Assembly (NCBI GenBank): GCA_965199235.1 | Contig: CBDAQU010000002.1 | Coordinates: 2,880,232 to 2,944,231 of the forward strand | Origin: Acetobacteraceae bacterium | GTDB taxonomy: Bacteria; Pseudomonadota; Alphaproteobacteria; Acetobacterales; Acetobacteraceae | Direction: 5' to 3' | DNA: 64,000 bases | Part shown: positions 3,015 to 13,491 of the stretch, piece by piece | Position numbering within the stretch: position 1 is the first letter of the stretch | How the letters are laid out: every line of letters begins with the position of its first letter | Notes under the pieces: generated by a model | What the model was told of the DNA's origin: nothing | The model's input: only the letters and a program-made list of their open reading frames with translations | Database searches by the model: none | Made by a program: the position numbers and the translations under genes

Positions 3015-4358
3015 CTATCGCCGTCCAGCCCGCCGCAGCGCGTCCGGCGTGAAATCATCCGGCGTCAGCGACGTTGTGGTGTAGGTCGGCGCCACCGCGT
3101 CCTGGCTGTGCAGGCCCTGAACCAGGTAGCGGCGGGCGAGCAGATCCATGAACTCGTACCCGTCTGCGCCGCAGAGCGGGACATCCGGCGCCTCCGCTAT
3201 GAAGGCGAGCGCCGTCCGCCATAGCTGGCCGCGCGTATCGTAACGGTCTGCGATCGCGATCTGCCAGCTATCCTCGTCGATGTAGAACGTCCGGCGTGCA
3301 TAGATGTTGCGGAAACCCGGCTTCAACGTTGCTTCCACAACCCACACACGGTGCAGCTCGAAGCGTATCAGGTCGGGATTGACCGCGATCGGCTTTACGA
3401 TGTCGCTGTACTTAACGCCCGGCTGCTGGATCCTGTAGGTGTTGTAGGGGATGTAGATTTCCTTCTTCCCCTTCAACGTCCAGTTGTAGCGGTCTACGGC
3501 GCCGTTAAACATGTCGTAGTCGTCGACGGTCTCCAGGCCATCGGTGTTCTGCACAGGAGTGTCGTAGTTGATCTCCGGCGCGCGGCGCACGCGGCGCTCG
3601 CCCGGGTTGTAGGTCCAGGCCTCGCGCGGCTGCGAAAACGGGTCCTGGTAGCTGCGCACGAGGGTGATCTGGCCGGCGATGCGCGGCGGCTCCAGCACCT
3701 CCTGCCAGAACAGGCTGTCCCACTTGGCAGGGTTGGCCAGGCCCGGCGTGTTGTAGGCGAGCAGGATCTGCTCGTGCCACCGGGTCAGGGAGTAGTCGCC
3801 GCTCGGCGTGGTGATCGCGTTGTCGGTGGTGCGCTGCACCTGGCTGCCGCGCCAGCGCAGGATGTGGTTCCAGATCGCCTCGTTGCCGTTCTTTGGTATT
3901 GGGAACGGGATAGACAGCTTGGCGCCTGCGACGCCCAGGCCGTTTTCGGTCAGGTGCGCGCGGCTCGCATTGGCGATGGCGTTGTCGTAGATGAATTGCG
4001 GCGCCGCTGCCGTCCGGTGTGTCGGATACACGTCGACGTGGTAGCCTGGCAGCGTGCGCACCATCGCGACCGTGCCGTCCGCCATGTGGCTGGCGTAGCG
4101 GTCGACGTTCTGCGCCGTGATGACGAATAGCGGCCGCTCGGGGGCGAACGGATCTGCCCGGTAATGGCCGGACACGAAGCCGGATGCGGGGGTGGTCAGG
4201 CCGCCGGTCCAGGCAGGAATGGTGCCGTCCGCGTTGCCTGACTTCACCGCGCCCAGCGGCGTCAGGCTGTGGCCGAGATCCGCCGCGGTCTGCGCGCCCG
4301 CAGGGGCCGCCAGCACCCAGCCGGCCAGTATGGTCGCTGCAAGCAGCATCTTCTTCAT
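3015..4358 (-). CDS. DUF1329 domain periplasmic protein (LolA-like fold family)
   Basis: Signal peptide MKKMLLAATILAG...; LTPLGAVKSGNADGTIPAWTGG, YNPGERRVRRAP, RRTFYIDEDSWQI motifs. Confidence 0.9.
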   Translation of the reverse strand: MKKMLLAATILAGWVLAAPAGAQTAADLGHSLTPLGAVKSGNADGTIPAWTGGLTTPASGFVSGHYRADPFAPERPLFVITAQNVDRYASHMADGTVAMVRTLPGYHVDVYPTHRTAAAPQFIYDNAIANASRAHLTENGLGVAGAKLSIPFPIPKNGNEAIWNHILRWRGSQVQRTTDNAITTPSGDYSLTRWHEQILLAYNTPGLANPAKWDSLFWQEVLEPPRIAGQITLVRSYQDPFSQPREAWTYNPGERRVRRAPEINYDTPVQNTDGLETVDDYDMFNGAVDRYNWTLKGKKEIYIPYNTYRIQQPGVKYSDIVKPIAVNPDLIRFELHRVWVVEATLKPGFRNIYARRTFYIDEDSWQIAIADRYDTRGQLWRTALAFIAEAPDVPLCGADGYEFMDLLARRYLVQGLHSQDAVAPTYTTTSLTPDDFTPDALRRAGRR

Positions 4359-4424
4359 GATTGTCGTCCCATCCCTCGTATTTCGGCGATTTTCGCCTTC
4401 CGGCGTATCTAATCTACACCGCTC

Positions 4425-4440
4425 TAGGGTGTCCACCCTT
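4425..4440. promoter_or_regulatory. Palindromic operator, copy 2 (TAGGGTGTCCACCCTT)
   Basis: About 67 bp upstream of the DUF1329 start; one mismatch to the consensus. Confidence 0.7.
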
Positions 4441-4526
4441 GCTCAGGATACCGCTGGGGACGAACGCGGGGAGGCGGCGGGAAACTCTGTCCGTGCCGCG
4501 CGAGCCACTCGGCTGGATAAACGTGG

Positions 4527-4561
4527 CCGCCATCCGGCCGCACGGCGCGGCCGGATGGCGG
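4527..4561 (-). terminator. 15-bp stem hairpin, likely terminator after the UrcA-family gene
   Basis: CCGCCATCCGGCCGC-acggc-GCGGCCGGATGGCGG, just past the stop at 4575. Confidence 0.6.
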
Positions 4562-4574
4562 TTTGGGCCGGCCA

Positions 4575-4916
4575 TCAGTTCGGTGCGACGGACGCCACGG
4601 AGTAGCCCCTGTTTGCAGCGGCAACCACCACACGCAGGTTGTGCAACGCATCCTGCAGCGCGGCAGCCTGGCAGGCCGCGTCGTCGGAGCTGAATGCTAC
4701 CCCGCCGCTGCTTTCGCCGCACACGGCGTGGCTGGCCGCCACCAGACGGCGGCGCAGCGCGTCCACGCCTTCCTTCTTGGCGAGGTTCAGGTCGGCATAG
4801 GTGACGACCATCGTGCGCACGTCGGTGTCCGCAGCACGGGTGCTGTTCAGCAGCGCGGTGCCGGCCAGCAGGGTGACAGCCGCCAGGCTGACGCGAGAGG
4901 CTTTGGTGATGTTCAT
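4575..4916 (-). CDS. UrcA family small secreted protein
   Basis: RBS GGAG; signal peptide; VTYADLNL...GVDALRRRLVAASHAVCG...AAC (two Cys), typical of the UrcA family. Confidence 0.8.
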   Translation of the reverse strand: MNITKASRVSLAAVTLLAGTALLNSTRAADTDVRTMVVTYADLNLAKKEGVDALRRRLVAASHAVCGESSGGVAFSSDDAACQAAALQDALHNLRVVVAAANRGYSVASVAPN

Positions 4917-5262
4917 GATTGTTGCTCCAGGTTGGTCGTGACAGCGGGGTCTGCCCTCTGGTGCCCTGAGGTCCTTGACGGAGCCCCTGGCGACGGCCGA
5001 ACCGGTAGTCCGCAATCCGAGACAGGCCTGCATCAATCCAGGCTAAATCTTACTAAGGTCAATAAATCCAGCTTGAACAGAGCTTTACACGTTTCAAGGC
5101 GGTAGCTCTTAGGCCTTGTCCGAGCTAAGCTTGGCTGCTTGTCGGGTCACTCGCCGGCGCGCTCCTGTCCAGCATCGGCCTGCAACCGCCGCAGCATTGA
5201 TGTCGGGCCGGTTCTTGCGGTAAGCCGCCCGCGCGCGGCTATCACGCCGCGGGAGCGTTCCG

Positions 5263-7467
5263 ATGCCGGTCGCGCCTCAACGTGTCCGTTTCGGCCGATG
5301 GCTGCTGGATGCGCCTCGCCGGACGCTGTATGCCGATGGCGTGGCGGTCGCGTTGAACGGCCGCGGCTTCGACCTGCTGGCATTTCTGGTGGCGCGCCAT
5401 GGCCAGCCGGTCAGCCGCGACGAGATCTTCGCGCATGTCTGGCCTGGTATCACGGTCGGTGAAAACAACCTCAGCGTCCAGATATCAAGCCTGCGCAAGA
5501 TCTTGGGCGAGGGGAGCGCGGCAGGCCCAGGGTTGATCGTGACCGTGCCGGGGCGGGGCTACAGTTTTACTGGAGAGGTAAGCGCGGAGACGTCTCGTGA
5601 GTCGCCGGCGCCGATGCTGCTGCGCGAGATCGACTTGCCATCTCCTGATGCAGGGCCGTCCCAACCGGCACTGCCTGCCGCCTCCAACGCGGCAACCGGC
5701 CGCTGGGGCACATCGTCCCCGGCCGTGAGCGCTGCTTTGGGCCTAGTGCTGGCGGTTTTGCTGCTCGGCAGCGCCGCTGCCCTGTTCTGGCGCCCGGCCC
5801 CGCCAGTGCCGCGCCTCTCGATCGCCGTGCTGCCTTTGAGGAATCTTAGTTCAGACAGGGAAAAAGCCTATCTCGCAGACGCGTTGACTGATGATCTGAC
5901 GTGTGATCTCGCTCACATCCCTGGCAGCATCGTCACTGCGCGCACGAGTGCGGAGGCCTATCAACACGCAGCCATGTCGGTCGAAGCCATCGGCCACGCC
6001 TTGCGCGTTCGCTACCTTGTCGACGGAAGCCTCACCTTCGAACAGGGCCGCTATTACGTCAGCATTGGTCTGATCGACGCGGCAAACGGCCACCATCTCT
6101 GGACGAGCCGCTTGCCGCCAATCCAGGGACGGCTGTTCGAGGTTCGCAATGCGCTCGTCCGCCAGCTATCTGTGGCACTCGGGTTCGAGATGGAACAGAT
6201 CGAAAGCGCCCGGTCCATCAGCGATCGTCCGGACGATCCTGATGCGACCGACCTGTTCCTTCGAGCACGCGCAATTCTCGATTGGGACACGTCGCTTCCT
6301 GGATTGCATCGGGCTCAGGCGATGCTCGAAAACGCTATCGAGCAGCAGCCGAGGTTTGGCGATGCACTGGCCCAGCTTGGGTCGATGCTTTTGACTAAAG
6401 TTCACGACATGGACGATCCCGACGCCGACAAGGACTACGCCGAGGCCTTGGAGATGATCAAACGGGCGCTGGAGGTATCGCCGAGGAACGCCTTGGCACT
6501 CGCAGCGCACGGGCGCGCACTGACGTTCACTGGTCGATGGACGGAAGCATCCTTCAGCGCCAACGCAGCCCTGAAAATCGAGCCCTCCTGTGTCGAGGCC
6601 GAAGCGGTGCTCGCGAAGTCTGCTCAAGCGCAGGGTTACCTTGACGACGCAGTGGAGCACATCGAAGCCATCTTTCGCCTCATGCCCAATAGCCCGCTCA
6701 ACAAAACGCGCTACGTAACGCTCGGCCTGATCTATCTGGTGAAGGGCGAAACTGAGGCTGCAATGAAGCAACTTCACGAAGCGATCGCGGGTGAGGAAGA
6801 CAGTGTGCCCACTGAGGGCTTGGGAAGAGTGGAAGTCACAAAGCTTCTGCTGGTTGCCGGGACCGGCATGCTCGGCCGGTCAGCAGATGCTCGGAAACTG
6901 TATGAGGATTACCGCACCAACTGGCCTAATCGGACAGAATGGCGCTTTGCCGCCCTGTTCGACAAATCCTACACACGCATGCCCGGGTTCCAACGCATGA
7001 TGACCGCACTCGAAAACGCCGGGATGCCGGTCACGGCGGACGAGCATGCGCCACCGTCCTCGCCTTCTCCTGCATGCCCCGGCACGGCGTTCGACGAGAC
7101 CCCGGCCAAGCTCGCGCATGGCCGAACGCTCGACACCGACTCGGTTTCGGCACTTCTGAAGCTGCAACCGCCGCCACTGCTCATAGATCTCGGAGACGGT
7201 ATTGCCCAGCCCCCAGGAGCGGTGCTGTATCGGCAGGGCGAAGTCGTTAAGCCGGCAGAAGTATTTGCGCTGGATACCGCACGGCAACATAATCTCGATG
7301 CGCAAACAGTAATAATCGTAATGGGCAGCGGAGCCTACGGCTGTACTTCTTTCTTGGCAGCAACAAGTCTTCTTGCGCACGGCTATAAAAATACAGCATG
7401 GTATCGCGGTGGCGAAGAGGCATGGGCTGCGGCCGGGAAATCCTCAACCGACGGGAGACCTGAATGA
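5263..7467 (+). CDS. Membrane-anchored transcriptional regulator: OmpR/CadC-type wHTH + TM + TolB-N-like + TPR + rhodanese-like domain
   Basis: RFGRWLLD...FDLLAFLV...VGENNLSVQISSLRKILG...TVPGRGYSF; hydrophobic segment ALGLVLAVLLLGSAAALFW; SIAVLPLRNLS; TPR helices; C-terminal WYRGGEEAWAAAG. Confidence 0.85.
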   Translation: MPVAPQRVRFGRWLLDAPRRTLYADGVAVALNGRGFDLLAFLVARHGQPVSRDEIFAHVWPGITVGENNLSVQISSLRKILGEGSAAGPGLIVTVPGRGYSFTGEVSAETSRESPAPMLLREIDLPSPDAGPSQPALPAASNAATGRWGTSSPAVSAALGLVLAVLLLGSAAALFWRPAPPVPRLSIAVLPLRNLSSDREKAYLADALTDDLTCDLAHIPGSIVTARTSAEAYQHAAMSVEAIGHALRVRYLVDGSLTFEQGRYYVSIGLIDAANGHHLWTSRLPPIQGRLFEVRNALVRQLSVALGFEMEQIESARSISDRPDDPDATDLFLRARAILDWDTSLPGLHRAQAMLENAIEQQPRFGDALAQLGSMLLTKVHDMDDPDADKDYAEALEMIKRALEVSPRNALALAAHGRALTFTGRWTEASFSANAALKIEPSCVEAEAVLAKSAQAQGYLDDAVEHIEAIFRLMPNSPLNKTRYVTLGLIYLVKGETEAAMKQLHEAIAGEEDSVPTEGLGRVEVTKLLLVAGTGMLGRSADARKLYEDYRTNWPNRTEWRFAALFDKSYTRMPGFQRMMTALENAGMPVTADEHAPPSSPSPACPGTAFDETPAKLAHGRTLDTDSVSALLKLQPPPLLIDLGDGIAQPPGAVLYRQGEVVKPAEVFALDTARQHNLDAQTVIIVMGSGAYGCTSFLAATSLLAHGYKNTAWYRGGEEAWAAAGKSSTDGRPE

Positions 7468-7883
7468 ACGACCAGTCAAGCATCGCAGGTGCCGCATCGA
7501 ACGCGGACACAGACCCGACAGACATTACGATCGAGTCCCTGACCGCTCTGCTAGACGACGTGATGGCTGCGAAGGAAAAGCACTACATCGTCATCGCAGT
7601 CTACGCATTGCCGAAAGACTGCGTCATCGGCAGTCGCAGTGGCGGGCATGATGTTGGTGGCACACCTGATGGGCTGACCGGCGTCCCGCCTGGCCGAAGG
7701 AATGCGATCTATAGATTTCCGATCGTGGACAAGGTGGATTTCGCGCGCGTACAGCTCGCATCAGCCGTGATCGAGCGATTCAAGAAAGCCAATGAGGTAC
7801 AGGCGGTGGTAGCCACGTCGAACCACCTTTACGCTCAGACGGCCTTCGGAGTCGAAAAACACCACCATCCCGACAGAGCGTGA
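7464..7883 (+). CDS. Hypothetical protein (139 aa)
   Basis: ATGA overlap with the upstream stop (translational coupling); no family recognised. Confidence 0.55.
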   Translation: MNDQSSIAGAASNADTDPTDITIESLTALLDDVMAAKEKHYIVIAVYALPKDCVIGSRSGGHDVGGTPDGLTGVPPGRRNAIYRFPIVDKVDFARVQLASAVIERFKKANEVQAVVATSNHLYAQTAFGVEKHHHPDRA

Positions 7884-7901
7884 ACTGGCTCCGTCCACCT
7901 G

Positions 7902-8010
7902 ATACCGACCGGCCGTGGGACCGACACACCCAAATGAACAAAGGTTTTCGGTCTTTTTTGCAAAAAGGACTGCTTGCCTTTCGTGAGTCAGACTCAAACC
8001 CGGTCGGTAT
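7902..8010. promoter_or_regulatory. Pair of TetR-type operator-like half-sites (ATACCGACCGG ... CCGGTCGGTAT)
   Basis: Perfect 11-bp inverted repeat at 7902-7912 and 8000-8010. On the minus strand TTGTCA directly precedes the second site. Confidence 0.4.
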
Positions 8011-8042
8011 GACAACAGAGTAAATACTTTTGGGGGGTGTCT

Positions 8043-10394
8043 CTACCCCCCATGCTCCGGCTCGAGCGCCGCTGCAATATCCCCCGGGTGTTTCTGCGGC
8101 ACGATCAAATCCATCACCCCGATGATCGCCGGCAGCACCACGATCGCGCCCGCCATGTTCATGAAGAACATGAACGTCAGCAGCATGCCCATGTCCGCCT
8201 GGAACTGCAGCGGCGAGAACGCCCAGGTGGCGACGCCGATCGACAGCGAGAGGCCGGTGAAGATCACCGCGGACCCGGTCTCCCGCAGGGTCTGGATGTA
8301 GGCCGCGTTCAGCGTGTAGCCGCGACGCATGTAGTAGCTGAGGCGCGAGAACTTGTAGATGCCGTAATCCACGCCGATGCCCACGCCGAGTGCGGTCACC
8401 GGCAGGGTGGAGAGTTTCAGGCCTATGCCGAGCACGCTCATCGCGGCGTTGGCCAGGATGGACACGGCGGCCAGCGGCAGCACGATGCAGAGCGCTGCCC
8501 GCACGGAGCGGAACACGCCCAGGCAGATCACGATGATCATGCCGTAAACCAGCCCCAGCATCGGCATCTGCGCACGCTCGACGACCGCATTGGTGGCGCC
8601 GATCACGCCCGCAGTCCCGGCCGCCAGCTCCAGCCGAACCTTGGAGGCCGAGGGCGTCGCGGAAAACCGCTCGATCGTCTTGATCACGCGGTCGATCGTG
8701 CCCGCCTTGTGGTCGGTCAGGAAGATGATCAGCGGCATCGCCGAGCAGTCGTTGTTGGCCAGGCCCTGGCTCGGCTCGAAGGCCGAGCTGTCGCGGCCGA
8801 GAACGCGGCTGTCATGCGGCAGGTAGTCGAATTTCGGGTTGCCCTCGTTGAACTGCACGTTCACCAGGCGCATCAGGTGTCCCATGAACAGCGTGCTGCG
8901 CACGCCGGGCACACCCTGCAGACGATGGTCCAGGTCGTCGATCCGGCGCACGCTGGCATAGTCCAGGCACGAGTTCGCAGGACCCTCGGCTAACACCTCC
9001 AGCACGTCCACACCGACCGAGTAGTTGTTCTGGAAGAACGCCGCGTCGCGGTTGTTGCGGCTGTCCGGCCGCAACTCCGGCACGCCCACGTGAAGGTCGC
9101 CCACCACAGGCTGCCCGAGCAGCAGCGCGCCGCCGGCCACCGCCACCGTCAGCGCGCAGATGATCACCGCAGAGCGCGGCGCAATCAGGCTGGCGAGAAG
9201 TCGCCAGAACCCCTCGAAACGCGCGGCCCCGCGCTGCGCCGCCTCCACCCGCGCCATGGAGACCGCGGCAAAGCTCGCGATCACCGGAAGCACCATCAGG
9301 TTCGTCACCGCCAGCACGGCGATGCCGATCGCAGCCGTCAGGGCCAGCTCGCGTATCGCCGGCACGGGGATCGTCGTGACGGTGACGAAGGTGAGGACGG
9401 CCAGTGCCAGCGCCACCGCGCCGGGCTCCAGCAGGTTGTGGAAACTGCCGCGCGCTGCCTCCAGAGACGACTTGCCCTCGCCGACCAGGCGCACGTTGGA
9501 CAGCGCGATCTGCACGCCGTGGCTGACGCCGATCGACAGGATCAGGAAGGGGATCAGCACCGAGATCGGGTCGATCCCGATGCCGAAGATCGTGATGATG
9601 CCGAGCTGCCACATCACGGCGATCAGCGAGCAGGCGAGCGCGGCTGCGGTCAGATAGAGCGACCGCGAAACGATGTAGAGCAGCACGGCGGCCACCGCGA
9701 GCGCGATGCCGAAGAACAGCACGATCACCTGCGCGCCGTGCTCGATGTCGCCGACCGCCTGCGCGAAGCCGAGGATGTGCACCTGCGTGTCGGGCGTGTC
9801 GTATTTCGCCCGGATGATGCTGTCGAGCGAGTCGGCGAACCGGCCGTAATCGAGGTGCTTTCCGGTCTGCGGATCGACGTCGTTCAGCTTGGCGCTGACC
9901 ACCGCGCTGCGGAAGTTGTTGGCGACCAGCCTGCCGAGAATGCCGGATTTGTAGATGTTCGCTTGCAGCGTCTCGAAACCATGCGCGTCCGGCTTGAACG
10001 TCTCCGGAATGACCGGGCCGCCGTTGAACCCGCCCTCCACGACTTCGGCAAAGCGCGTGTCGGGCGTGAACAGGCTGCTGACGTGGTTGCGGTCTACGCC
10101 ATGCAGGAAGAACACGTCGTCGGTCAGGCGCCGCAGCGCGTCGAGATACTTGGCCGAGAAGATGTCGCCGTTCTTCGCCTCCAGAGAGATCAGCAGCACG
10201 TTGCCGCCGCCGAACTGCGCCTCCACCCGCTTGTAGGTGTCGATATAGGCGTTGTGCGACGGCAGAAGCTTGTCGAAGGCGGCGTCCGGGCGCACGCGCA
10301 CGGTGAAGAAGCCCAGTCCGACGGTCACGATCGCAAACAGCGCCAGCACCAGGCGGCGATGGCCGAACAGGGCGCGGTCGAGGAACCCGATCAC
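8043..10394 (-). CDS. RND superfamily / MMPL-type transporter
   Basis: 783 aa; two TM bundles with periplasmic loops; GIGVDYGIY and ILSIGVSHGVQ motifs; GTG start overlaps the YCF48 stop. Confidence 0.92.
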   Translation of the reverse strand: MIGFLDRALFGHRRLVLALFAIVTVGLGFFTVRVRPDAAFDKLLPSHNAYIDTYKRVEAQFGGGNVLLISLEAKNGDIFSAKYLDALRRLTDDVFFLHGVDRNHVSSLFTPDTRFAEVVEGGFNGGPVIPETFKPDAHGFETLQANIYKSGILGRLVANNFRSAVVSAKLNDVDPQTGKHLDYGRFADSLDSIIRAKYDTPDTQVHILGFAQAVGDIEHGAQVIVLFFGIALAVAAVLLYIVSRSLYLTAAALACSLIAVMWQLGIITIFGIGIDPISVLIPFLILSIGVSHGVQIALSNVRLVGEGKSSLEAARGSFHNLLEPGAVALALAVLTFVTVTTIPVPAIRELALTAAIGIAVLAVTNLMVLPVIASFAAVSMARVEAAQRGAARFEGFWRLLASLIAPRSAVIICALTVAVAGGALLLGQPVVGDLHVGVPELRPDSRNNRDAAFFQNNYSVGVDVLEVLAEGPANSCLDYASVRRIDDLDHRLQGVPGVRSTLFMGHLMRLVNVQFNEGNPKFDYLPHDSRVLGRDSSAFEPSQGLANNDCSAMPLIIFLTDHKAGTIDRVIKTIERFSATPSASKVRLELAAGTAGVIGATNAVVERAQMPMLGLVYGMIIVICLGVFRSVRAALCIVLPLAAVSILANAAMSVLGIGLKLSTLPVTALGVGIGVDYGIYKFSRLSYYMRRGYTLNAAYIQTLRETGSAVIFTGLSLSIGVATWAFSPLQFQADMGMLLTFMFFMNMAGAIVVLPAIIGVMDLIVPQKHPGDIAAALEPEHGG

Positions 10395-11371
10395 TGTGTC
10401 ATCTCCCTGGCCGCCTGCGTCGCCGCGGGGTCCATCAGGTGCACGCCGTCATCGCCGACCACCACCAGCTTGCCGTCGGCGGCTTCGGCGACGCCGGAGA
10501 GGGTTACACCGGTCGGCGGCGGCAGCGTGCGGGCGCGGTCGGTATGCGGATCGAACAGCATCACTAGCCCGTTGCCGCCGACCAGCGCGAAGGAGCCGTT
10601 GGCCAGCACCGTGCCGCCGAAGATCGAGCGTTGCTCGCCGGTGTCGATGCGGCGCCAGGCGGGCGAGGCGGCGCTGGAGACGAACAGGCTGCCGCGCAGC
10701 CCGAAACTGTAGACCTCGCCATCCTGCGCGCGCAGACAGCCGAACTGCGAACCGTCATAGCCGACCGGGATCGCCGTCCACGCCGCGTCGTGGCGCAGAA
10801 ACGCGTGCCCGGCCTCGCCCACCACCACCAGGTCCGGTCCACGCGCCAGCACGCAATTGAGGTGGTAGTCTTCGTCCAGGTTCGGCAGCTTGACCGGCGT
10901 CCACGCGGCGCCGGCATTGGACGTCTCCAGCATCAACGCGTACGAGCCGGTCGCGACCAGATGGCCGGGGCCCAGGCTGGCTACGGAGAACAGCACCTGG
11001 TCGGCGCCGGGGGTCGTCATCTGCGTCGTCCAGTGCGCACCCGCATCGGCGGTGTGCAGTATCGTCGAGTCCTGCCCAACCACCCAGCCATCCGACGGGC
11101 TGACGAAGACGGCAGCCGTCAGAAGTTCGTCGGTGCCGCTCGTGACGGCCGACCACGTCACACCCTGGTCGTCGGACAGCAGGATCGCACCGCGGTCGCC
11201 CACCGCAACCAGCCGCTTGCCGGCCCGGCTGACAGAGAGGAGCACGCCGTGCACGGCGCGCCAGTTCGGCGTGTCAGTCGATACCTGCCCAGCTTGCGCG
11301 ACGGTGTTTGCTGCTGCCAAGACGAGGACCATTACCATGGCCCGTAAACCAAGCTTGGGTATCAAAGACAC
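10391..11371 (-). CDS. YCF48-related / BNR-repeat beta-propeller protein
   Basis: LVAVGDRGAILLSDDQGVTW, TADAGAHW and TSNAGAAW repeats. Start is GTG 11371 (RBS GAGAGG) or ATG 11338. Confidence 0.88.
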   Translation of the reverse strand: MSLIPKLGLRAMVMVLVLAAANTVAQAGQVSTDTPNWRAVHGVLLSVSRAGKRLVAVGDRGAILLSDDQGVTWSAVTSGTDELLTAAVFVSPSDGWVVGQDSTILHTADAGAHWTTQMTTPGADQVLFSVASLGPGHLVATGSYALMLETSNAGAAWTPVKLPNLDEDYHLNCVLARGPDLVVVGEAGHAFLRHDAAWTAIPVGYDGSQFGCLRAQDGEVYSFGLRGSLFVSSAASPAWRRIDTGEQRSIFGGTVLANGSFALVGGNGLVMLFDPHTDRARTLPPPTGVTLSGVAEAADGKLVVVGDDGVHLMDPAATQAAREMTQ

Positions 11372-11418
11372 TGACCTCTCGTTCCTTCCGGGCGCTTCGA
11401 CCCTGCCCGCAAAACCGA

Positions 11419-11461
11419 AGCCACCACGCCCGGCTGCGCGTGGCAGCAAAACGTGGTGGCT
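11419..11461 (-). terminator. Stem-loop between the DUF1302 and YCF48 genes
   Basis: AGCCACCACG (11419-11428) ... CGTGGTGGCT (11452-11461). Confidence 0.45.
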
Positions 11462-11535
11462 CGACGATCTCGGCACTAAACGCCGGAACGGGTGCGCTTG
11501 CCCCTTACACGTTTCCGTCAGCGTTGTCGCCCTGG

Positions 11536-13491
11536 TCAGAACTCGTAGGACACCACGGCGGAGACGAAGTCGCGGTCGATCAGCCCGTAGAACTTCCCGC
11601 CGTCGAAAACCGGGAAATGGTTGGTGTATTGCAGGCCAAGGCTCCACGCCTGCAGGTAGTTGAACGTGACGCCGATGCTGGCTGCCGCCGTGTTCTGCAC
11701 GAACACGTTCACGCCGACGGGGCTGGTCCCGACGAAATCGTGCTGCAGGGAGATCGTCGGCTTCATGTCGATGCCGTAAGGCAGCACGTTGGGCATGTCG
11801 ATGATCGTGGCGATAGTATAGGCGGCGGAGAACTGGCTCGCCAGGCCCTTCGTCGAGAGGGGCGTATTGCCGTTCACCGTGGCCGTCTCGTTGAAGGTGG
11901 AGTTGACCTCCGTCGTGTAGGCCGCATCGAACACGCCGCGGTTGCGCGGGAAGTTCGCCACGAAGTCGCCGCCGATCTCGCCCACGATGGCGATCTGGTT
12001 GATGTATAGGCTCGGGATGGCGTTGAACAGCTTCGTCGCCGTCGTCTGGGCCTGGATCACCGGGTAGCGCTTCCAGCCGTCGATGATCTGGTTGTAACCG
12101 GTCGGTATGCCAGCGAGCTGGATCGTCTGGTCGGTGATGGCGTCGTGATAGGCGGTGGCGAGGGCCGGCGACAGGCCGAGCGACTGCTTGATGGCCGGCA
12201 GTGCCTGCGCCAGCGCCAGGTCGGACGCACTGAGCTGGATCGGCTGGTTGATGCGGCTCGACAGCTCGCCCTGGATGGCCAGGCCTTCCGGACCGGTGAA
12301 GTTCCAGCTCACGCCCAGGAGGTGGATGTCCTTCGGATAGTCGGCGAAGTAGGACGCCGTCGACTCGTAGCTTTTCTGGACGTAGCCCTTGATGCCCTCC
12401 AGAGCGATCTGGAACGGCCGCGGCAGTTCTGCGTAGGTCGGGCCCAGATAGGGCGCCAGGCCGGAGATGTTGAAGCTGCCTGTCCGGTCGGAGCTGAACG
12501 GCGTGCGGCTGTGGTAATTCTCGAAGTAGAACCCGAATTCCGCGTCGCCCAGGCTGGAGAAGCTCTTGCGCAGGGCAAAGCCGAACTCGTCAAGGCTGGT
12601 CGGGTGGCGGTCCAGGCTGCGCGGCAGCGACGCGCCGAACAGGTCGCCCACGCCGGCGTTGATGCCGTAGACGCTCTGCCGGTTGTCGGCAAAGTCGTTG
12701 CGCAGATTACCGTAGGTGCCGCCGTCCACGATCGTGTCGTTGTTGCCAAAGAACGACCCGTTGGGCTCCAATATGGTGCGCGTCCAGGCAAACTGCCAGA
12801 ACGCCTCCAGCGAGTAGCCGTCGGCCAGGTCCGTCTTTATGTCCACCACCGGGATCGGCAGGAACCCCTGGCGGAGTTCGGAGCCAGGGGTGCGCAGCGC
12901 CGTGGTGTCGAGCGGGTTGATGGAGTTTATGCCGAACTGGATGAACGTGCTCTCGCCCCAGTTAAGCGCCTGTGCGCCGACGCGCACGTCCACGGGATGG
13001 CCGAAGACCGACGGACGGGCGAAGGCGTAGGCGTCGAGCAGCCGGAGGTTCGCACCGATGTCGACCTCCGCCGAACGGCTCAGCGGCAGGAAATCGGTGC
13101 GCTCGCTGTCGGTTACAGGGTCGTAGAACCCGGTCGCACGGATGAAGAACCCGTAATCGTCCTTCTTGGCCTGCAGCTCCGTCGTGACGCGCTGCACCGC
13201 GGCCACCGGCGACCCGTCCCGGTAGTTCAGCGTGCCGTTGTCGTAGTTGGCCAGCACGAAACGCCCGCCCGGATTGGCGACACCCACGAAGTTGTAGTCG
13301 ATCGGCGACGTGCGAAGGTCCACGCTGGACGACAGCGTCGTATCGAGGTTCACCTGCCAGCCATCGATGGTTGTGTCGAAGGCGCGGGCATTGTCCGTGA
13401 CCGCCATGGCGGCACAGGCGGCTCCAGCCATCAACACCGCACGGCGCAGCCTGGTCATCGATGGTGCCCCGCACGAAACAGTATAGGCCAT
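11536..13491 (-). CDS. DUF1302 family outer-membrane protein
   Basis: Signal peptide; YDNGTLNY, GAQALNWGESTFIQFGINSINPLD, LEAFWQFAW motifs; C-terminal DRDFVSAVVSYEF (terminal Phe of beta-barrels). Confidence 0.9.
   Translation of the reverse strand: MAYTVSCGAPSMTRLRRAVLMAGAACAAMAVTDNARAFDTTIDGWQVNLDTTLSSSVDLRTSPIDYNFVGVANPGGRFVLANYDNGTLNYRDGSPVAAVQRVTTELQAKKDDYGFFIRATGFYDPVTDSERTDFLPLSRSAEVDIGANLRLLDAYAFARPSVFGHPVDVRVGAQALNWGESTFIQFGINSINPLDTTALRTPGSELRQGFLPIPVVDIKTDLADGYSLEAFWQFAWTRTILEPNGSFFGNNDTIVDGGTYGNLRNDFADNRQSVYGINAGVGDLFGASLPRSLDRHPTSLDEFGFALRKSFSSLGDAEFGFYFENYHSRTPFSSDRTGSFNISGLAPYLGPTYAELPRPFQIALEGIKGYVQKSYESTASYFADYPKDIHLLGVSWNFTGPEGLAIQGELSSRINQPIQLSASDLALAQALPAIKQSLGLSPALATAYHDAITDQTIQLAGIPTGYNQIIDGWKRYPVIQAQTTATKLFNAIPSLYINQIAIVGEIGGDFVANFPRNRGVFDAAYTTEVNSTFNETATVNGNTPLSTKGLASQFSAAYTIATIIDMPNVLPYGIDMKPTISLQHDFVGTSPVGVNVFVQNTAAASIGVTFNYLQAWSLGLQYTNHFPVFDGGKFYGLIDRDFVSAVVSYEF

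Follow-up and report, generated by a model that had tools for sequence, protein, structure and literature searches.

We predict that a 734-amino-acid (aa) protein encoded next to urcA is a ToxR/CadC-type membrane one-component regulator that activates urcA through an array of phased direct repeats, and we put the probability of this reading at about 65%. The two genes lie in a 64,000-nucleotide (nt) stretch of contig CBDAQU010000002.1 from an Acetobacteraceae bacterium (assembly GCA_965199235.1). This stretch is the window, and all positions refer to it; L and G labels denote the loci and genomes that were compared. The cassette has three genes: urcA on the minus strand, the divergent regulator gene on the plus strand, and a coupled 139-aa open reading frame (ORF), orf139, behind the regulator. 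A reading of the sequence alone had described this same layout, with the 139-aa frame joined to the regulator gene by an ATGA overlap, and it is present as described. Our confidence is higher for a dedicated local regulator with this operator than for the reading as a whole, and we are less sure of the sign of regulation.

The pairing of UrcA with the regulator recurs across the genus. We sampled 26 genomes of this Acetobacteraceae genus, which is known mostly from lichen and bog metagenome-assembled genomes (according to record titles). UrcA occurs in 18 of them, at 26 distinct loci, and at 17 of these loci (14 genomes) it stands head-to-head with a gene of the regulator family, divergent without exception. 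Because the arrangement recurs so often, the link between the two genes is not due to chance. The paired loci span at least three paralog groups, comprising two long clades and a set of short paralogs. A maximum-likelihood tree was built from 54 full-length relatives, 11 of them UrcA-linked. These 11 fall into two well-supported clades of seven and four; the UrcA-linked label needs two changes on the tree, a number as low as this being reached in 0 of 500 shuffles. Pairwise distances among UrcA proteins correlate with those among the adjacent regulators (r 0.75, Mantel p ~5e-4), and the cassettes have accordingly been duplicated and have diverged as units. One genome (G010) carries three cassettes, and the pairing is maintained amid wholly different neighbors at L029, L037 and L040.

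Outside the genus the picture is different. In a sample of 120 other Acetobacteraceae genera, nine have UrcA (11 loci), and none of these loci has such a neighbor within 1.5 kb. The UrcA pairing anticipated by the sequence-only reading thus recurs within the genus and was seen at none of the loci sampled in the rest of the family. It is not a general trait of UrcA genes, and in Caulobacter it is a two-component regulator, UzcR, that controls urcA (PMC8963506).

The 346-bp region between urcA and the regulator gene contains seven direct-repeat units (gcaTCAATcc, aggCTAAAtc, ttaCTAAGgt, caaTAAATcc, agcTTGAAca, gagCTTTAca and cgtTTCAAgg) with a period of exactly 10 bp. Units 1-4 (5030-5069), with the cores TCAAT, CTAAA, CTAAG and TAAAT, are the most conserved. 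When the 17 intergenic regions are aligned on repeat 1 no gap is needed, and A or T is kept at positions 5, 15, 25, 35, 45 and 55. On the urcA side, a CTAYSG box (CTACCG in the window) lies 21-24 nt from unit 1 and is followed 8-9 nt further on by GTCGCC; the CTACCG box is a candidate -10 element of urcA. Scored with a position weight matrix built from the array, the window site, itself a member of the training set, reaches 45, and the second-best site in the 3.95-Mb genome reaches 22.7; the array occurs in this genome only once.

Upstream of paralogs that lack a UrcA neighbor, phased repeats are found with cores of their own: TCAAA/TCAAT three times, TGAAA three times, GCTAAA three to four times, CCGAAA three times and CTTAA three times. 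Exact 4-mer triples at a period of 10 or 11 occur in 17 of 54 upstream regions, compared with 1.4 +/- 1.2 (maximum 5) in shuffled sequences. The repeat cores change with the clade of the regulator, as would be expected of its own sites, and the array is therefore likely to be a binding site of the regulator, although we treat it as putative. The ToxR box is TNAAA-N5-TNAAA (PMC8517210), and the pattern of the array is close to it, with the cores TCAAA and TGAAA in paralog clades. An AT-rich divergent promoter had been proposed at 5040-5140; there is indeed an AT-rich stretch (5030-5100), but it holds a conserved array. We rejected the idea that it is merely an AT-rich promoter, as the alignment is gap-free over 17 loci and the repeat cores are clade-specific.

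Some observations weigh against activation of urcA from this array. A sigma-70 consensus scan of 4300-8300 found no promoter, and the distance from repeat 1 to the -10-like box exceeds the normal spacer between -35 and -10 elements. The array could instead serve the promoter of the regulator itself, or mediate repression. Counts across loci overstate their independence, since related sequences share history. The positive-inside charges flanking the transmembrane (TM) segment of the regulator are uninformative, and its topology rests on the need of the winged helix-turn-helix (wHTH) domain for a cytoplasmic location.

In line with some of these points, the regulator might repress urcA or only regulate itself, with the array as a repressor or autoregulatory site, but we consider this unlikely. 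The array does sit between two divergent genes, similar arrays are found 100-240 nt upstream of family members without a UrcA neighbor, and several loci have a -10-like box of the TTAGAC type ~17 nt to the right of repeat 4. However, of the flanking boxes it is the one toward urcA, at a fixed distance, that is best conserved, and OmpR/ToxR/CadC-type factors that bind phased direct repeats beside a promoter with a poor -35 element usually activate (PMC5430869, PMC8517210).

The domain content of the 734-aa protein is that of a ToxR/CadC-type regulator, in agreement with the sequence-only reading, which had proposed a membrane-anchored regulator with a wHTH domain of cytoplasmic type, one TM segment and TPR repeats. 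The wHTH domain is preceded by just 27 residues, and a receiver domain is absent. Its closest solved relative is the DNA-binding domain of Escherichia coli CadC (5ju7, E 1.7e-12), with OmpR-family regulators and ToxR next in rank. We ruled out that the protein is a CadC ortholog: it scores 101.6 bits against the CadC equivalog NF007540, far under the cut-off of 400, and the match is limited to the N-terminal 130 residues. The single hydrophobic segment (KD19 2.47) is retained as a hydrophobic stretch in 12 of 12 aligned relatives. We predict that the part beyond it is periplasmic and the wHTH domain cytoplasmic, because the latter must be cytoplasmic and because the family nearest to the C-terminal domain, TIGR03865, has periplasmic members.

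Directly after the TM segment is an alpha/beta region that is the best-conserved part of the regulator family (residues 183-345, 67% mean column identity in 37 relatives). A TolB-N domain had been suggested here, but a profile of residues 181-345 gave only non-significant matches in the PDB (FlgO, E 0.14; TolB, 0.2; CadC periplasmic domain, 0.5), and the TolB-N likeness is a lead and not a result. The TPR repeats that follow score above the Pfam gathering cut-offs, with 42.9 bits for PF13428 (cut-off 23.5) and 40 for PF14559 (cut-off 25). The same genome has at least two further full-length paralogs of the regulator outside the window, L134 (G000:C2:2539000-2545500; 42% identity) and L135 (G000:C2:3027500-3034000; 37%). 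With these paralogs, cassettes of a regulator and a small ORF are multi-copy in this genome. Upstream of L134 and divergent from it is a gene whose product is probably secreted, and a small ORF of 137 aa, of the type that we call cluster A, lies downstream.

In another reading, UrcA would act on its own regulator as a periplasmic partner or ligand, for example by docking on the TPR or the rhodanese-like part, in a feedback loop with the periplasmic co-component in a divergent, not a downstream, gene. TPR domains typically bind proteins or peptides. The co-divergence of UrcA and regulator sequences and the multiplication of cassettes as units within genomes would both fit, and a small partner in the periplasm is a common requirement of ToxR-type factors (PMC9214523). 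Plain co-duplication of neighboring genes would produce the same co-divergence, however, and nine of the 26 UrcA loci in the genus, like all 11 elsewhere, have no such regulator adjacent. We regard this role of UrcA as improbable, and favor UrcA as the output of the regulator.

The C-terminal domain of the regulator has a rhodanese fold. The Pfam Rhodanese model (PF00581) scores 17.2, below its cut-off of 22.2. A 49-sequence profile of residues 596-734 matches the thiosulfate sulfurtransferase 1yt8 (E 5.8e-6), and an AlphaFold model of the domain (pLDDT 91, pTM 0.86) retrieves only rhodaneses among its top 50 Foldseek matches, with TMq ~0.6 and 1yt8 among them (E 8.5e-6, TMq 0.63). The rhodanese-like part that had been proposed is thus confirmed, as is the replacement of its active-site Cys by Gly. 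The active-site loop IIVMGSGAYGCTSF is present, and it reads GSGAYGC with no CXXCW motif; Gly or Ser occupies the catalytic position in 12 aligned relatives. In the alignment with 1yt8, G688 takes the place of the catalytic Cys; this makes the domain a catalytically dead rhodanese-homology domain, and an active sulfurtransferase was rejected. All 49 relatives of the domain match TIGR03865 (PQQ_CXXCW), every one under the cut-off (best E 2.4e-17), and the protein from the window scores 32 bits where the cut-off is 128.

A Cys at the end of the loop, C694, had also been pointed out as retained. It is present, but as part of a clade-specific Cys pair and not as a remnant catalytic residue. Among the 54 full-length relatives, C605 and C694 are both present in seven and both absent in 47, with no sequence having one of the two, and the seven form exactly one clade of the regulator tree. 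Other clades have Leu/Ser, Leu/Val, Lys/Trp, His/Trp or Leu/Phe at these sites, which look like a co-varying contact pair that became Cys-Cys once. Most likely, the two residues form a disulfide, tying the N-terminal extension to the degenerate loop of the active site. A second UrcA-linked clade has Leu/Val in place of the Cys pair, and three UrcA-linked short paralogs (583-640 aa) end before the rhodanese domain (for example with ...VKAGMPL). Both the pair and the domain are thus dispensable for the UrcA pairing.

These observations bear on the notion of C694 as a sensor of thiols or persulfides in the rhodanese-like domain. In its favor, CadC and ToxR use periplasmic Cys residues as switches, and C694 is positioned where the degenerate active-site loop ends. 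Conserved periplasmic disulfides have also been noted in the ToxR-type family (PMC9214523). Thiol sensing is nonetheless quite doubtful, more so than either a ligand role of UrcA or repression: the catalytic position holds a Gly, C694 is found only alongside C605 in one clade of seven, and the residue pairs in other clades fit a contact pair turned disulfide. Moreover, one UrcA-linked clade has neither Cys and three UrcA-linked paralogs lack the entire domain.

The ATG of orf139 overlaps the TGA of the regulator gene (ATGA), a Shine-Dalgarno sequence GGGAGA lies 8 nt before the start, and no in-frame upstream start is possible. We predict a soluble, cytoplasmic protein, as no TM segment or signal peptide was detected (maximum KD19 1.02). 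Homologs follow the regulator in the ortholog clade (L014-L017), and the overlap of 1-4 nt is kept in L014 and L015. Searches of Pfam and NCBIfam with orf139 gave no match. A profile search of 1.84 billion representatives returned nine relatives only, and a word-indexed search of 5.8 billion proteins returned only orf139 itself. An AlphaFold model from a 5-sequence alignment was unusable (pLDDT 43). The coupled 139-aa protein that had been reported as an unknown is, as judged from this conservation, a real and fast-evolving partner in the ortholog clade.

Most members of the regulator family (L014-L090) have an ORF of 80-140 aa just downstream. These small ORFs group into four clusters in parallel with the regulator clades, and none of 33 matches Pfam. 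Comparisons among the four clusters with hhalign were not significant (best pair A versus D, E 8e-4, probability 24%). Because homology between clusters could not be demonstrated, we treat the small ORFs as positional analogs and not as one family. The order of elements is common to all clusters (beta strand, Gly/Pro-rich loop, beta strand, C-terminal helix), and the small ORFs may represent a single partner family that evolves very fast.

The urcA product matches the UrcA family model TIGR04433 with 57.4 bits (cut-off 25). It has a hydrophobic, signal-like N-terminus and two Cys residues, C66 and C82, both of which are retained in the 16 paired UrcA proteins that were displayed; the two-Cys secreted UrcA protein of the sequence-only reading is thereby borne out. 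The listed ORF (4575-5036, with a TTG start) is over-extended, and the true start is the ATG at 4916 (MNITK...), with a Shine-Dalgarno sequence GGAG 8 nt upstream. The gene is single copy in the genome. No solved structural relative of UrcA was found. In Caulobacter no gene is induced more strongly by uranium than urcA, on which uranium biosensors are based, and no function has been assigned to it (PMC8963506).

Past the urcA stop is a 15-bp GC-rich hairpin (-41.9 kcal/mol over a 76-nt stretch, z -3.3) where a terminator had been proposed. The hairpin is there, but it was not called by a consensus terminator scan because its U-tract is just UUU. Some genomes of the genus have tandem UrcA duplicates (L017/L105 in G003:C84 and L124/L128 in G013:C122). 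At L036 (G022:C5:437864-441008) the regulator, of the closest clade, is broken in three (one TAA and frame changes), and the two tandem UrcA genes beside it are intact. One clade without UrcA has, as its divergent upstream gene, one for another small secreted protein (126 aa, MNKFLKMTAG...; L046 4884-5264 and L061 5264-5644). It seems that a regulator of this family repeatedly faces a gene for a small secreted protein, and that the target can be exchanged.

The cassette is flanked by a gene for an HAE3/MMPL-type RND protein (8043-10394) and a DUF1329 gene (3015-4436). Genes for a Ycf48-like protein and a DUF1302 protein lie upstream of the RND gene, and the whole transport cluster covers 3015-13491. 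It is very improbable that this cluster is the true target and urcA a bystander: the cassette does lie between the RND and DUF1329 genes, and the RND neighbor is kept, but the array occurs only once in this genome and the UrcA pairing persists at L029, L037 and L040, where the neighbors are different.

Across the ortholog clade the RND neighbor is kept, and the urcA side is variable, with DUF1329 in either orientation or unrelated genes instead. The gap between the convergent orf139 and RND genes (7884-8042) is AT-richer and contains a hairpin and a palindrome, TGAGTCAGACTCA, at 7984-7996. An Rfam search of 4300-8200 gave no match. GC content is 0.56-0.62 over 5800-8200 and 0.61 in the intergenic region, compared with 0.66-0.72 in the flanks. 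A lower-GC block had been noted; this holds for these parts but not for urcA itself (0.68). Coordinates of the features are collected in Table 1.

Table 1. Predicted features of the urcA-regulator-orf139 cassette, in window coordinates
Feature	Position	Strand	Basis
15-bp GC-rich hairpin past urcA stop, terminator-like	4527..4561	-	RNA fold z -3.3
urcA, 113-aa secreted UrcA-family protein	4575..4916	-	TIGR04433; signal peptide-like N-terminus; C66, C82
Boxes on urcA side: CTACCG (5003-5008, -10-like) and GTCGCC (4989-4994)	4989..5008	-	Fixed distance from repeat 1 (21-24 nt) in 17 paired loci
Seven 10-bp direct-repeat units, candidate operator	5030..5099		17 intergenic regions aligned without gaps
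734-aa ToxR/CadC-like transmembrane one-component regulator	5263..7467	+	Domain matches; Shine-Dalgarno GGGAG before ATG
OmpR/CadC-type wHTH, residues 28-102, no receiver domain	5344..5568	+	PF00486 (Trans_reg_C), 57.1 bits
Single TM segment, residues 155-176	5725..5790	+	KD19 2.47; sole hydrophobic window
Conserved alpha/beta region after TM, residues 183-345	5809..6297	+	FlgO/TolB-N/CadC-periplasmic-like, unproven
TPR repeats, ~residues 345-515	6295..6807	+	PF13428 and PF14559 above cut-offs
Rhodanese-like domain with N-terminal extension, residues 596-734	7048..7464	+	G688 at catalytic position; C605/C694 pair
orf139, small soluble protein (predicted), translationally coupled	7464..7883	+	ATGA overlap; no known family
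Hairpin after orf139, terminator-like	7949..7972	+	10-pair stem in consensus terminator scan

The mechanism that we infer would run as follows. The periplasmic sensor, made up of the CadC-like alpha/beta region, the TPR repeats and the dead rhodanese-like domain, would read a periplasmic cue, for which the sequence-only reading had suggested a thiol, a metal, a peptide or UrcA itself, with the C605-C694 disulfide most likely forming within the rhodanese-like part. On the cytoplasmic side, the OmpR-type wHTH domain would bind the phased repeats at 5030-5069, possibly as far as 5099, probably as an oligomer. Occupancy of the array most likely activates urcA, because the array abuts the conserved -10-like box on the urcA side, and it may also control the regulator-orf139 operon. 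Through translational coupling, orf139 would be supplied as a soluble, quickly diverging accessory factor of the regulator. A more elaborate arrangement, which we hold only tentatively and think unlikely, is a three-part envelope-signaling unit of a previously undescribed kind, in which UrcA would be a co-sensor or feedback ligand of the receptor and orf139 would tune the wHTH domain or the linker.

The predicted regulator is similar to E. coli CadC in having an N-terminal OmpR-type wHTH domain without a receiver, a cytoplasmic linker and a single TM segment. Its periplasmic sensor, like that of CadC (PMC9214523), would consist of an alpha/beta part and then a TPR-like helical subdomain, and the putative site is AT-rich and adjoins the target promoter, as it does for CadC (PMC5430869). 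Unlike CadC, it has an extra C-terminal rhodanese-like domain and a coupled small ORF, its proposed target is urcA and not cadBA, and its putative operator is a row of direct repeats where that of CadC is a quasi-palindrome.

The co-component cassettes ToxR/ToxS, VtrA/VtrC and their relatives also combine a transmembrane wHTH factor with an overlapping, co-translated and very fast-evolving partner gene that belongs to no known family (Kinch et al. 2022, PMC9214523), and they share with the protein described here cysteines near the C-terminus that are periplasmic, here by prediction. TNAAA-type direct repeats with 10-bp spacing are a further likeness to ToxR (PMC8517210). In contrast to ToxS and VtrC, which are membrane-anchored periplasmic lipocalin-like proteins (PMC9214523), orf139 has no TM segment or signal peptide. 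The predicted periplasmic part of the regulator is also larger, with ~550 aa in several domains, whereas those of ToxR and VtrA are a small alpha/beta domain.

For UrcA itself, the comparison is with Caulobacter, in which the OmpR-family response regulator UzcR activates urcA from sites at -43/-53 (PMC8963506). In both cases a UrcA-family gene has an upstream site for an OmpR-family DNA-binding domain (here predicted). UzcRS is a histidine kinase/response regulator pair that is encoded elsewhere and has a large regulon, whereas we predict one membrane protein beside urcA with a single site. The motifs differ as well, with CATTAC-N6-TTAA for UzcR and phased CTAAA-type repeats here. For the C-terminal domain, TIGR03865 is the closest named relative and has in common the region of a WYRGGEEAW-type C-terminal motif. 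TIGR03865 proteins stand alone, whereas this domain is fused to a transcription factor and lacks CXXCW. No description of the regulator architecture, the UrcA pairing or the operator was found in the searchable literature.

If the prediction is correct, the UrcA family receives a different type of input in this genus, from a one-component membrane sensor of its own that is encoded beside urcA and whose predicted operator is present once in the genome studied here. Such a small, self-contained circuit, with one regulator, one site and one output, would offer a route to the inducing cue and then to the role of UrcA. Were the three-part unit to be true, UrcA-family proteins would be signaling partners and not passive stress effectors. 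The findings would also extend what is known of ToxR/CadC-type regulators, by a dead rhodanese domain that is predicted to be periplasmic, by predicted operator cores that vary from clade to clade, and by an unannotated class of small, coupled and fast-evolving partner ORFs that, unlike ToxS and VtrC, appear to be cytoplasmic.

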